Below are positions 28,842 to 33,870 of a stretch of DNA of 36,443 nucleotides, piece by piece (the first letter of the stretch is position 1; each line of letters opens with the position of its first letter). A program made the translations under genes and the position numbers. Source of the DNA: Candidatus Sysuimicrobiota bacterium (GTDB lineage: Bacteria; Sysuimicrobiota; Sysuimicrobiia; Sysuimicrobiales; Sysuimicrobiaceae); contig PSLI01000018.1 in assembly GCA_040289515.1 (NCBI GenBank), positions 1-36,443 on the forward strand, read 5' to 3'. The notes below the pieces were generated by a model that was not told the origin of the DNA, searched no databases, and was given only the letters and a program-made list of their open reading frames with translations.

Positions 28842-29363
28842 TTACGTGGTGGCCGGACCCCGCAGCAGCACCACGGACCCCGTGCGGGCCACCTCCCGCA
28901 CCCCGTGCCGCGCCACGAGGTTCAGGAACGCGTCGATCTTCTCGGGGGTGCCCGTGACCTCCAGGGTCACCGTCTTTTCCGTGAGGTCAATCGGGCGCGC
29001 CCGAAACACCTGAGCGGCTTCCAAGATCTCCGACCGCACCCCCGCGGGTGCGTTCACCTTCACCAGGGCCAGTTCCCGTTCCGTGCGCGGCGCGTCCGTC
29101 ACGTCCCGGACCCGCCGCACCTCCACCACCCGGCGCACCTGCTTCACTACGGATTCCGCTAGGGCCGCGGGACACTCCACCGTCATGGTGATCCGGGAAA
29201 CCGCGGGGTCCTCCGTCACGGACACCGCCAGGCTGTGGATGTTGATCCCGCGCCGCCGAAACAGGGCCACCACACGCAGGAGCACACCCGGTACGTTGTC
29301 TACCAGCACCGACAGCACCCGGCGCTCCCCCATCGGCTGCGCATTGGGCACCGCGTTAGTCAC
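28842..29363 (-). CDS. ilvN: Acetolactate synthase small (regulatory) subunit
   Basis: ACT domain LSVLVDNVPGVL..LFRRRGINI.SL, ERELALVKV and EVARTG. The start may instead be ATG 29333. Confidence 0.93.
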   Translation of the reverse strand: MTNAVPNAQPMGERRVLSVLVDNVPGVLLRVVALFRRRGINIHSLAVSVTEDPAVSRITMTVECPAALAESVVKQVRRVVEVRRVRDVTDAPRTERELALVKVNAPAGVRSEILEAAQVFRARPIDLTEKTVTLEVTGTPEKIDAFLNLVARHGVREVARTGSVVLLRGPATT

Positions 29364-31056
29364 CGAGGATCATCTCCTTCACGGATTGCCCCGAGGGGAT
29401 CATGGGGTAGCAGTTCTCCTCCGGGTCCACCAGGAGGTCCACCACCACCGGACGGTCCGTCACCTCCAGGGACCGCTGCAGGGCCGGTTCCAGCTCCTCC
29501 GAGCGCTCCACGCGGATCCCCACCGCCCCGAAGGCCTCCGCGAGGCGGGCGAAGTCGGGGTTGCGGAGCTGGACTGCACAGTACCGCTGGTTGTAGAAGA
29601 GCTCCTGCCACTGCCGCACCATGCCCAAAGAGGCGTTGTTCACCACGTAGATCTTCAGGGGCAGCTTCCACTCCACCGCGGTGATGAGGTCCTGCATGGT
29701 CATCTGGAAGCCCCCATCCCCCACGATGGCCACCACGAGAGCGTCGGGGCGGGCGAACTGGGCTCCCATGGCGGCGGGGAAGCCGAACCCCATGGCCCCC
29801 AGGCCGCCGGAGGAGATGAAGGTCCGTGGCTTCCGGCACTTGTAGTACTGGGCCGCCCACATCTGGTGCTGCCCCACGTCCGTGACCACCAGCGCCTCCC
29901 CCCGCGTGACCCGGTGGATGGCCTCGATGGCCTCCTGGGGCTTAAGCAGGGGGCCCGGCTTCCACCGGAGTGGATAGCGGGCACGCCACTCCTCGATCTG
30001 CTTCCACCACGCCTCCACGTCCGGAGGCTGCACGAGCGGTTCCAGCGCCTCCAGCACCTCCCGAGCATCTCCCACGATGGGGATGTGGGCGGGCTTGTTC
30101 TTTCCGATCTCCGAGGGGTCGATGTCGATGTGGATGAAGCGGGCGTGGGGGCAGAAGTCCTTCAGCCGGCCCGTCACCCGGTCGTCGAACCGCGCCCCCA
30201 CCGCGATCACCAGGTCGGCGGCGTTGATGGCGTAGTTGGCGTACGCGGTACCGTGCATGCCCAGCATCCCCAGGCACAGGGGGTCTGTTTCGTCGAAGGC
30301 CCCCTTGCCCATAAGGGTCACCGTCACGGGGATGCGGCACCGCCGGGCCAGGCGGGCCAGGGGCTCGCTGGCACCCTGAGCGCCCCCGCCCACGTACAGG
30401 ATGGGCCGCCGGCTCTGGGAGATGGCCTCCGCGGCCTCCGCGATGCGGGCAGGGTGCCCCTTGGTGACCGGCCGGCGGCGGGGCTCGAAGGCCTCCTCCA
30501 GCAATTCCTCGGGGAGCTGGGCCTGCAGCACGTCGCGCGGCACATCCACCAGCACGGGACCCGGACGCCCCGACTGGCACAGGTAGATGGCCTCTCGCAG
30601 GGTGCGCACGAGCGCGTGGGGATCCATCACCAGGGCATTGTGTTTGGTGATGGGCGTGGTGATGGAGGTCACGTCCGCCTCCTGGAAAGCGTCCGTTCCG
30701 ATGTTGGCCCGCACCACCTGCCCGGTGATGGCCAGCACCGCGGCGGAGTCCATCATGGCGTCCGCCAGCCCGGTCACCAGGTTCGTGGCCCCCGGGCCGG
30801 AGGTGGCGGTGCACACCCCGAACCGTCCGGAGGCCCGCGCGTAGCCCGTGGCCGCGTGCGCGGCCACCTGCTCGTGCCGACAGAGCACGTGGCGGATGCC
30901 CGGGGCGTCATACAGGGCGTCATACAAAGGGAGGGACGCGCCACCCGGGTGCCCGAAGACCCACTCCACCCCGGCCTCCTCCAGGACCCGTACCACCGCC
31001 TTCGCCCCCGAAATGGTTCGGGTAGCCTTGCGGGTCTCGGCCGTGGCGGTTTTCAT
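29356..31056 (-). CDS. ilvB: Acetolactate synthase large subunit
   Basis: FGHPGG, RHEQ, TSGPGATN, GTDAFQE, GMLGMHG, DVGQHQMW and the ThDP-binding GDGGFQM...NN motif. Confidence 0.96.
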   Translation of the reverse strand: MKTATAETRKATRTISGAKAVVRVLEEAGVEWVFGHPGGASLPLYDALYDAPGIRHVLCRHEQVAAHAATGYARASGRFGVCTATSGPGATNLVTGLADAMMDSAAVLAITGQVVRANIGTDAFQEADVTSITTPITKHNALVMDPHALVRTLREAIYLCQSGRPGPVLVDVPRDVLQAQLPEELLEEAFEPRRRPVTKGHPARIAEAAEAISQSRRPILYVGGGAQGASEPLARLARRCRIPVTVTLMGKGAFDETDPLCLGMLGMHGTAYANYAINAADLVIAVGARFDDRVTGRLKDFCPHARFIHIDIDPSEIGKNKPAHIPIVGDAREVLEALEPLVQPPDVEAWWKQIEEWRARYPLRWKPGPLLKPQEAIEAIHRVTRGEALVVTDVGQHQMWAAQYYKCRKPRTFISSGGLGAMGFGFPAAMGAQFARPDALVVAIVGDGGFQMTMQDLITAVEWKLPLKIYVVNNASLGMVRQWQELFYNQRYCAVQLRNPDFARLAEAFGAVGIRVERSEELEPALQRSLEVTDRPVVVDLLVDPEENCYPMIPSGQSVKEMILGD

Positions 31057-31091
31057 GTCGCTCCTCCCCTCTCGGTTTGCACAGTCTCTAG

Positions 31092-31130
31092 AAAAGCACC
31101 GGGAGCCAACCTAAGGACGGGCTGGCTCCC
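31092..31130 (-). terminator. Intrinsic terminator of the Leu T-box
   Basis: Stem GGGAGCCAGCC/GGUUGGCUCCC followed by GGUGCUUUU. It is mutually exclusive with the antiterminator. Confidence 0.85.
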
Positions 31131-31320
31131 GCGGTACCACCTTAGTTCCGAGCTGCACAACAGCTCGGCCCTCGTTGACCCTTCACGCGGGCCACGTGCC
31201 GGGCTACTCGCCTTCGCCCGGCAGGCTCGGGGACGAGGTTCAGCGCCCGGCCCTGCCGGATCGCACCTCCCCGGCTCTCTGGGGGGGCCCCGCGGCGCCT
31301 ACTACTTCCCTTCGTTGCCC
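31092..31320 (-). ncRNA. T-box riboswitch (Leu specifier CUC) controlling the ilv-leu operon
   Basis: Stem I has AGUA, AGAGA and GGUGCGA motifs. The specifier loop reads GAAC-CUC-G (31237-31235). T-box AACUAAGGUGGUACCGCG (31147-31130); antiterminator AAGG-UGGUACC-GCG..CGU-CCUU. Confidence 0.93.
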
Positions 31321-31333
31321 GGATTCGGTTTTC

Positions 31334-31467
31334 CGCACACCCAGCAGCCGGGTGGGTGCCGCAGCTGCTGCTCCTGGGGGACCGGCCCCGATTGGACCGG
31401 TCCGGTGGTGCGATCGGGTGACCTTTGGTGAAGCCGCCTCCCGCACCACCGCTTCCCCCGGTGTGCG
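31334..31467 (-). ncRNA. Unidentified multi-stem structured leader RNA upstream of the Leu T-box
   Basis: Five complementary stems of 8, 4, 10, 9 and 9 bp. It starts within a few nt of the predicted TSS. See findings. Confidence 0.6.
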
Positions 31468-31477
31468 TTTGCGTTTA

Positions 31478-31506
31478 CTTGTACCAGCAGACCCCGCGGG
31501 TGTCAA
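31478..31506 (-). promoter_or_regulatory. sigma70-type promoter of the ilv-leu operon
   Basis: TTGACA (31506-31501), a 17-nt spacer, then TACAAG with an extended TG (31483-31478). Confidence 0.8.
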
Positions 31507-31535
31507 CGCAGCTTCGATTCACGTTCCTTATCAAG

Positions 31536-32903: not shown

Positions 32904-32932
32904 ATCCTAGGAGCCGCCCCGAAGGTTGTCAA
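32904..32932 (-). promoter_or_regulatory. sigma70-type promoter of the aroF T-box leader
   Basis: TTGACA (32932-32927), 17 nt, then TAGGAT (32909-32904). The -35 overlaps the LysR stop codon. Confidence 0.85.
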
Positions 32933-33870
32933 CGGGTGCCCGATGCAGCCCGTTGATCAACCGTCACTTGTCCGCCACTCAGGGTGGCCCGCAGGGTCTG
33001 CACGAACCGCTTGGCCCACTCGTTTAGGCCTCGGCCCCTTAGGTACACCAGGTCCACGAACCGCTGGGGCATCTCCGCACCCACCAAGCGTACCGAAACC
33101 AGGCTCCCTTCCGCCACCTCCCGCCGTACCGCGATCTTCGGCAGGAGGGAGATGCCTACACCCCGCTCCACCATCTTCTTGGTGGCCTCGATGGTGTCCA
33201 GCTCCAGGACCACGTTGGGGATCAGGCCCTGGCGTCGGAAGGTGGCGTTGAGTAGGGTCCAGTCGCTGGACCCGCGGTCGTAGAAGATAAGGGGCTGGCC
33301 TGCGACCTCCTCCAGGGTCACCCGCCCCACGTTGGCGAAGGGGTGCCGGGGATACACCACCAGCGCGAAGGGATCCCGGGCTAGGTGGATGGTTTCCACC
33401 TGGGGGTGGCTCAAGGACCGAGCCAGCCCGATCTCCGCCTCTTCGTTGAGGACCATCTGCAGGACCTCCCGGGAGTGCCCTGTGCGGATCAAGACCTTGC
33501 ACGCCTCGCACTCCTGCCGGAACCGCTTCAGGGCCTCGGGCAGCAGGTACGTGCACAGGGAGGGGACTGCGGCCAAGGTCAGGGGCCCCGCGGAGGGTCC
33601 CGTGGTCTGCTGCACCGCGTGCTGGCCTTCGACCACCGCCTGGATGGCGCGCTCCGCGTACGGCAACAGGGCCTCCCCTGCCTCCGTGAGCCGCACGGTG
33701 CGGCCGTCCCGCTCGAACAGGCGCTTGCCCAGGGCTCGCTCGAGGGACTGGATGCGGGCACTGACTGCGGGCTGCGACAGGAACAAGGCCTCCGCGGCGC
33801 GGTGGAAGCTCCGGAACGTGGCCACCGCCACGAAGGCCTCCAGCTGGTGCAGCTCCACGGTCCCGCCCAC
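32929..33870 (-). CDS. LysR-family transcriptional regulator
   Basis: HTH SFHRAAEALFLSQPAVSARIQSLE..LG..LFER..LTEAG and a substrate-binding domain (MVERGVGISLLP). SD GAGGTG. Confidence 0.94.
   Translation of the reverse strand: MGGTVELHQLEAFVAVATFRSFHRAAEALFLSQPAVSARIQSLERALGKRLFERDGRTVRLTEAGEALLPYAERAIQAVVEGQHAVQQTTGPSAGPLTLAAVPSLCTYLLPEALKRFRQECEACKVLIRTGHSREVLQMVLNEEAEIGLARSLSHPQVETIHLARDPFALVVYPRHPFANVGRVTLEEVAGQPLIFYDRGSSDWTLLNATFRRQGLIPNVVLELDTIEATKKMVERGVGISLLPKIAVRREVAEGSLVSVRLVGAEMPQRFVDLVYLRGRGLNEWAKRFVQTLRATLSGGQVTVDQRAASGTR

Follow-up and report, generated by a model that had tools for sequence, protein, structure and literature searches.

The window, a 36,443-nt stretch from Candidatus Sysuimicrobiota bacterium, carries on its minus strand a run of genes that begins with ilvB (29356..31056) and includes ilvN, ilvC, leuA, leuC, cimA and leuB, assigned by NCBIfam matches above their cut-offs. 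Upstream of ilvB lies a sigma-70-type promoter (31478..31506, minus strand) made up of TTGACA at 31506-31501, a 17-nt spacer and TACAAG at 31483-31478, which an earlier note on this DNA had pointed out and which is conserved in the leaders of the family. It does not appear in the list of a consensus promoter scan because the last base of its -10 box is G. A transcription start is predicted at A31470, from the 7-nt spacing to an A that is common to family leaders. Further downstream is a Leu T-box (31110..31324, minus strand), whose specifier we read from the sequence as CUC at 31237-31235. It matches RF00230 over its full length (31324-31110) with 89.4 bits (E 3.8e-20), 3.6 bits short of the cut-off of 93, and includes stem I with the specifier, the T-box and the terminator; nine of ten other family leaders scanned pass the cut-off. 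The intrinsic terminator of this T-box, recognised by a terminator scan and in the sequence, occupies 31090..31131 on the same strand.

A second T-box, divergent in kind, follows the aroF promoter at 32898-32624 of the minus strand (35.7 bits, E 1.6e-4) and begins about at its own inferred transcription start, as the earlier note had said. Both T-boxes of the window score below the Rfam cut-off. The TTGACA of the aroF promoter (32932-32904, minus strand) overlaps the stop codon of a LysR-family gene, and the terminator scan of the window found no terminator-like site between aroF and the ilv promoter.

Between the predicted start and the Leu T-box lies the element that we analysed (31334..31470, minus strand). 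Its minimum-energy fold has a free energy of -86.2 kcal/mol and a z-score of -5.74. None of 200 shuffles was as stable, and none of 198 GC-matched random windows of the same genome reached a z-score of -4. The earlier note had drawn five helices, P1 to P5; all five lie where it placed them and together make up this predicted fold, which is kept when the whole leader is folded, with about two cross pairs predicted with the T-box. Their conservation is mixed. P1, P3 and P4 recur among related copies, but P2 (GGGG/CCCC) keeps only 0-3 of its four pairs and P5 only 1-5 of its nine in the 12 other copies, and the purine-rich junctions to which the note had drawn attention are likewise unconserved. 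P2 and P5 are a rearrangement peculiar to the window copy.

Read from its 5' end, the element opens with the 5' arm of an extended closing helix (P1 of the note; 31460..31467, pairing with 31341-31334), which stands just 5' of a purine run that aligns with the 5' strand of ykkC P0. There follow a long hairpin (31403..31451, P3 of the note), the counterpart of ykkC P1 with the motif-bearing internal loops replaced by ordinary pairs, and a short hairpin (31380..31402, P4 of the note), the counterpart of ykkC P2, in register and with 93.6% of alignment cells paired. The 3' domain (31342..31379) is remodelled in the window into the 3' strand of the note's P2 together with its P5; in relatives it consists of GCACC, a ykkC-like P3 and a small added hairpin. 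The 3' arm of the closing helix (31334..31341) completes the structure, all on the minus strand, and is followed in the window by GAAAA. The nine nucleotides after the closing helix contain no U in the window copy, which thus lacks a U-tract, and 3-5 U in the 12 others. The window copy is also the lowest scorer against the family model, at 78 bits.

We found 13 distinct copies of the element, with folding z-scores from -2.4 to -7.2. Every copy comes from one Sysuimicrobiota family and occupies the same position, with the promoter on one side and the Leu T-box of ilvB on the other. Among 30 ilvB loci of relatives, eight bear the element (one of them the locus in the window; all belong to genera g1 and g3 of family f1), three from genus g2 of the same family have only a short hairpin without a U-rich tail, and eight from families f2, f5 and f7 have a ykkC core in the same slot. 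The remaining loci have neither or are cut short; in family f3, only about 70 nt separate the start of ilvB from the end of the contig, and the leader is off it. Three ykkC copies rise above the RF00442 cut-off among the 20 ilvB loci scanned. A metagenome scan, anchored on the T-box and not on the element, yielded eight loci, of which five have the element, one a hairpin and two no extra structure that we could see. Over all family leaders, one hairpin is present in four and no structure was seen in two. A phylum-wide search with the covariance model places the element in 8 of 94 genomes, always as a single copy and only before ilvB. We had considered a repeat or mobile element and rejected it, the element being single-copy by BLAST as well as by the model. 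A 503-nt contig assembled from RNA runs of a relative covers the promoter to the T-box, with 139 other letters replacing the element; these data (five runs with a share of 0.05) consist of assembled contigs only, from which neither ends nor expression can be read.

In a tree of ilvB with 61 rows, 10 element-bearing rows group together with a support of 98, separate from six rows of the family that lack the element and from a clade of 44 rows of other families, 21 of which have ykkC. The tree comes from a quick search, from which 11 loci without an ilvB match and near-duplicates were left out; two element rows wrongly bear the label 'other' in it. Because its root is unreliable, the order intact, eroded, hairpin, none is our inference and not a tested sequence. 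No intermediate with a partly intact ykkC core was found among the loci examined.

The fold conserved in the 13 copies consists, in order, of a long closing helix, a hairpin of 52-58 nt, a short hairpin, a junction (GCACC in 7/13 copies), a third, bulged hairpin and lastly a small one formed by CCC/GGG. In a plain alignment 84.4% of cells are paired. Covariation in related ilvB leaders, which the earlier note had proposed to examine, is evident: two-sided changes occur in 12 of 42 pairs, a count matched by 5 of 500 shuffles, and none of 500 attains the covariation score. These controls are generous because the structure was drawn from the same related sequences. The arms of the closing helix are 0.91 identical across eight genomes, and three of the 13 copies have a matched 2-nt deletion on both arms. 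Two pairs of the short hairpin show two-sided change. Folded alone, the long hairpin measures 52-58 nt with 16-21 pairs in every copy, versus 51-52 nt with 16-19 pairs in seven ykkC copies. Most relatives show the P0-P1-P2-P3 order of ykkC at like size, plus one added hairpin; the window copy has a remodelled P3, and that of one genome, G009, has none. The G009 leader (L016:1064-1110) is also missing one copy of an AAACGC repeat after the -10 box, so its inferred start falls inside the 5' arm and its closing helix is shorter. GCACC-like words recur up to four times per copy (in the 5' arm, the P2-P3 junction, the P3 loop and before the added hairpin; L010-L014, L073, L075, L076), and each of them can pair with the 3' arm of the closing helix. 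A leader peptide was ruled out on reading the alignment by eye, as the copies have no start codon in common.

The element matches no Rfam family at either threshold used, and RF00442, the model that detects ykkC-2a, gave no match up to E 10. Likenesses to lysine, glycine, SAM and cobalamin riboswitches and to SRP RNA were considered and dropped for want of Rfam support. Two observations of the earlier note, that the RNA is real and that it sits in the usual slot of the ppGpp riboswitch, stand together with the absence of an Rfam match, and we asked how the element relates to ykkC. A covariance model (R2) was trained on the 13 element copies only. Run on 94 genomes of the phylum, with 33 candidates scored per genome, it returned eight training copies and one other stretch, G024:C190:32563-32700 (E 0.041), which is an RF00442 match, a ykkC aptamer upstream of ilvB. 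Run on 54 loci (138,623 nt, with 25 ykkC copies), it gave 27 matches: the 13 training copies, three opposite strands of these, ten same-strand ykkC aptamers, at E 2e-4 to 0.79, and one unrelated stretch (E 0.89). Outside the element, ykkC aptamers thus account for 10 of 11 matches in these loci, although R2 missed 15 of the 25 copies on offer. In the four alignments shown, P0, the apical hairpin of P1, P2, the CACC junction and P3 are in register.

Further comparisons gave mixed results. A profile-profile alignment of element and ykkC is colinear from end to end, with a score reached by 3/600, 1/400 and 3/400 shuffles. In a pairwise test, copy L075 scored above all 12,000 genome background windows; against descent, the window copy alone was borderline (665/12,000), and the reverse complements of four related copies also scored high (3-35 of 12,000). 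Also against it, a local HMM of eight ykkC copies was significant for the window copy (4/1000 shuffles) and for none of the other seven tested. The ykkC covariance model found no significant element match (best E 0.11; window copy E 3.7), its second and third matches being in-register P2-P3 pieces of two copies (E 0.13-0.14). Sequence shared with ykkC includes the variable apical loop of P1 and extends across the P2-P3 junction. Taken together, these sequence comparisons make it very probable that the element descended from a ykkC-2a riboswitch.

This probable parentage bears on the proposal of the earlier note that a different sensing module had occupied the slot. An unrelated RNA, resembling ykkC only because both consist of G+C-rich hairpins of similar size, would explain the missing Rfam match, the weakness of the tests run from ykkC to the element and the high scores of some reverse complements, but it is very unlikely. 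From 139 kb of equally G+C-rich leaders and from 94 genomes, the model of the element retrieves ykkC aptamers, with strand and helix register correct, and the two RNAs have sequence in common in the apical loop of P1, a variable part, and over the P2-P3 junction.

Five invariant ykkC motifs (of the P1 internal loops, the P3 loop, P0/P1 and J3/0) are present in none of the 13 elements, as against 42-43 of 43 ykkC copies; one of these counts, that of the 5' core motif, is circular because the motif served to select the ykkC copies. The earlier note had rightly seen that the ykkC core motif was missing (0/13 copies). Changing any one of six conserved nucleotides lowers the affinity of the ppGpp aptamer by a factor of 1000 or more (PMC6003355), and the first C of the C-A-C at the P2-P3 junction pairs with the guanine of ppGpp (PMC6031431, PMC6003355). 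All three junction nucleotides are kept in 7/13 copies; the window has CCC. Across the same eight genomes, mean identity of the element is 0.63, close to that of the promoter spacer (0.61) and of four-fold sites in ilvB (0.61), and the T-box and the intact ykkC before gltB stand at 0.83 and 0.90. By region, the closing helix reaches 0.91, the interior 0.58-0.68 (the long hairpin, 31403..31451, 0.58), the region of the added hairpin 0.75 and the tail, the least conserved part with none of its six positions invariant, 0.48. Only six unpaired columns are invariant, two of which are start-site As. The interior of the element therefore appears to drift at about the neutral rate, where neutral is approximate because the proxies are G+C-biased and near saturation. 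The closing helix and the added hairpin region are conserved above that rate. Among the features of a new riboswitch class, covarying structure is present, with controls inflated by the use of the same sequences to draw it; many invariant unpaired residues and several gene contexts or a wide spread are absent. The gene context, an ilvB operon with a Leu T-box in its leader, is one of those of ykkC-2a, which precedes genes for branched-chain amino acids or glutamate synthase, often together with a Leu T-box. On these features the element would not belong among working ppGpp sensors, and an eroded ykkC-2a riboswitch is the best reading of it.

The predicted folding polarity also differs from that of the presumed ancestor. 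The ppGpp riboswitch has a labile closing helix, which the ligand stabilises against the terminator (PMC10687018). When we folded intact ykkC transcripts to the U-tract, after dropping one copy without a U run, closing-helix probability was below 0.5 in 41 of 42, with terminator-type folds and median gaps of 11.0 and 8.5 kcal/mol in two groups. For the element, the ligand-free prediction gives a closing-helix probability of 0.88-1.00 in 13/13 copies, the closed fold being favoured by 8.9-15.6 kcal/mol at 37 C and 4.7-10.4 kcal/mol at 65 C. An own terminator that wins without ligand, a feature of ykkC-2a, is not predicted for any copy; the closed fold wins in all 13. All of this is equilibrium secondary structure only. 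A 12-pair terminator-like hairpin, in which the 3' arm pairs with the 3' strand of P3, is 92.5% compatible across copies and becomes the predicted fold in most of them when the first 16 nt are blocked, but it shows no two-sided changes and 307 of 500 shuffles match it. The earlier note had called an alternative hairpin, GCACCCA/UGGGUGU, switch-like. It can indeed form in 13/13 copies with 6-7 of its seven pairs, but local pairing of the 3' arm makes up at most 0.08 of the ensemble, the hairpin has no two-sided covariation and it is predicted to be 9-16 kcal/mol less stable.

We think that the element is probably an eroded descendant of a ykkC-2a ppGpp riboswitch, which has lost its core motifs, is predicted to sit in a ligand-free 'on' fold and leaves the T-box as the sole RNA gate. 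The element and the ykkC-2a riboswitch of sister families would share a common ancestor, with ppGpp binding lost on the side of the element. Its closing helix would have grown from about six pairs to about nine in the window copy and 13-14 in most relatives, and the old 3' strand of P0 and the terminator arm would have merged into one strand, now held by the lengthened 5' end. Once bound in the grown closing helix, this strand could no longer serve P3 as its partner in a terminator; the default state would be reversed and the element likely fixed in its read-through fold. A ppGpp riboswitch and a T-box in tandem form an AND gate (PMC9481103). That gate would be reduced to the T-box, since transcription would run through the closed element. 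With the core motifs lost and a permanent 'on' fold predicted, this is likely an RNA switch being retired and not a new one. Whatever selection remains may act mostly on foldedness and on the closing helix, for instance by shielding the 5' end or by keeping the leader off stem I of the T-box, and the second input may have moved to the promoter, with its LysR-like box and A start. Several observations count against this reading: the closing helix and the added hairpin region are conserved beyond the neutral rate, the C-A-C persists in 7/13 copies, the 12-pair terminator-like hairpin is still largely compatible across copies, and 12/13 copies have a U-rich tail.

The covarying helices (12/42 pairs with two-sided change, a covariation score reached by 0/500 shuffles) and the conserved sequence of the closing helix could also be read as marks of a ykkC-derived switch that is still active in a rewired form. 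Its 3' arm would toggle between the 5' end, giving read-through, and the 3' strand and loop of P3, giving a terminator. A new ligand or an RNA-binding protein would decide between the two, possibly by way of the repeated GCACC motifs. Changes of ligand come easily to the ykkC scaffold (PMC6031431, PMC7266159), and the 92.5% compatibility of the alternative hairpin, as well as its prediction in most copies once the 5' end is blocked, fit such a toggle. We nevertheless consider it unlikely. Only the six unpaired columns are invariant and interior identity is just 0.58-0.68; the alternative hairpin is without two-sided changes, no better than most shuffles (307/500) and 5-16 kcal/mol less stable at 37 and 65 C; P3 is absent from the G009 copy, and the window copy has a rebuilt 3' domain and no U-tail. 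The single copy per genome in a single gene context is also against it. Equally unlikely is a scaffold rebuilt as a fifth ykkC subtype for a new ligand or protein, which together with the T-box and a gained LysR operator would amount to a three-input gate; Rfam would miss such a subtype because it has drifted so far. For either, and for the sensing module of the earlier note, we see no signature of an aptamer under selection.

Alternatively, the element may be a ligand-independent attenuator, in which the helix at the U-rich tail stops part of the transcripts in most relatives, those reading through from aroF included. This would set a basal level, perhaps with more stopping at higher temperature, and would have been lost in the window copy. 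In keeping with it, 12/13 copies have 3-5 U in the nine nucleotides after the helix, comparable to about four U in the T-box terminators of eight genomes, warming to 65 C brings the two folds closer in energy, from 9-16 to 5-10 kcal/mol apart, and no terminator-like site separates aroF from the promoter. However, the tail is the least conserved part of the element (identity 0.48, 0/6 invariant) and absent in the window, its Us are explicable by pairing with the start-site As, and the three genus g2 genomes have only a hairpin and no such tail. We regard attenuation of this kind as quite unlikely.

If the eroded element no longer passes a second signal to the operon, the promoter region offers a candidate for its replacement. 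A dyad box, GAT-N11-ATC, lies at 31516..31532 (minus strand), centred about 54 nt upstream of the inferred start. It contains T-N11-A, which with dyad symmetry near a promoter is the LysR-type operator pattern (PMC11495319), and so fits a candidate LysR-type operator by its sequence, though such a short motif does not single out LysR proteins. The box stands at the same offset from TTGACA in 19/19 ilvB leaders of family f1 and in 0/50 other leaders, one of which matches 5 nt further up, and the genome has one strong copy. A candidate binder is encoded nearby by a LysR-family regulator gene (32929..33870, minus strand), recognised by LysR models of which none is above cut-off; a structure search with the protein gave one distant match. 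Orthologues 81-96% identical are present in 9 of 11 other family genomes, and none above 54% was found in the 29 genomes of other families searched. The gene lies 5' of ilvB on the same contig in G002, G008, G009 and G010, and in G009 it abuts the ilv promoter with no aroF between. Because the family genomes are kin and amount to about one event, the link between box and LysR gene is a lead only. It hints at a handover from RNA to protein control at the ilv promoter, with the LysR protein and its dyad box as a candidate new regulator of branched-chain amino-acid synthesis.

Lost ppGpp signalling was considered as the cause of erosion and rejected, as a RelA/SpoT match over cut-off is present in 12/12 family genomes and an intact ykkC persists before the glutamate synthase gene in the genome of the window. 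In that genome the RelA/SpoT match is split into two frames near model position 575 (G000:C49:33455-35513, plus strand), and another, partial copy is located where a contig ends (C66:5-1255, plus strand); a frameshift or an artefact of assembly may be the reason.

The closest known system is ykkC-2a in tandem with a Leu T-box (PMC6003355), found in the same slot 5' of the ilvB T-box in sister families. Most copies of the element keep the order and lengths of P0, P1, P2, the junction and P3, and traces of ykkC sequence remain in the purine run of P0, the apical hairpin of P1, the CACC junction and the strands of P3. Unlike ykkC-2a, it lacks the five invariant motifs in 13/13 copies, its P1 internal loops are zipped up, its closing helix is much longer, a small extra hairpin follows P3, no separate terminator lies downstream, the predicted default fold is reversed and drift is near neutral. 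The guanidine-I, 2b (PRPP), 2c ((d)NDP) and 2d (orphan) variants of ykkC share the scaffold ancestry and set a precedent for ligand change (PMC7266159). Their consensus models are almost the same, with differences at the pocket, and the genes that they precede are other ones (PMC7266159), whereas the element has lost the shared core and gained no new invariant set. The likely end state resembles that of Bacillus subtilis, whose ilv-leu leader has one Leu T-box together with promoter control by CodY and an ATP start (PMC12452182, PMC3113569), the latter raising promoter activity in the stringent response of Bacillus (PMC3113569). Here too there would be one RNA gate with promoter control and an inferred A start, but the candidate factor is a LysR-type protein with a T-N11-A box and not CodY.

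Sherlock et al. suggested in 2018 that ppGpp riboswitches used to be widespread and that many organisms came to use a protein factor in their place (PMC6003355). Our literature search, made in listings with few subscription papers, turned up no description of a degenerate ykkC or of riboswitches of this phylum. In Sysuimicrobiota the stages appear to exist side by side: sister families have an intact ppGpp riboswitch with T-box, and elsewhere there is an eroded copy that still folds, a lone hairpin, or no structure at all. The eroded states are accompanied by a family-specific operator-like box and a LysR gene, and the intact gltB paralogue in the same genomes provides an internal control. Because all of these coexist, riboswitch loss and handover to a protein can be tested in vitro. 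The case is also a warning that a covarying RNA without an Rfam match in a riboswitch slot can be a relic. Should the element prove inert, it would be a tidy evolutionary case and not new biochemistry.

Intact ykkC-2a riboswitches are common in Sysuimicrobiota, both before ilvB with a Leu T-box and before glutamate synthase (L021, L022, L023, L026, L033-L035, L038 and others; G000:C14:46074-46184). RF00442 matches occur in 70/94 genomes and pass the Rfam cut-off in 16. Six other leaders 5' of an ilvB T-box (L028, L085, L093, L106, L079, L123), found among the ykkC-bearing relatives, have no core and have kept 50-100 extra nucleotides, and may represent independent decays. The element model gave no match on the four of these on which it was run, nor on the set of relatives of L123; L028 and L085 contain a stretch resembling the 3' strand of ykkC P0. 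The ilvB leaders of the family-f4 type (L027, L084, L088, L092, L094, L119, L120) have a different 5' extension of about 90 nt, which opens with a GGGTTTC...GAAACC hairpin.
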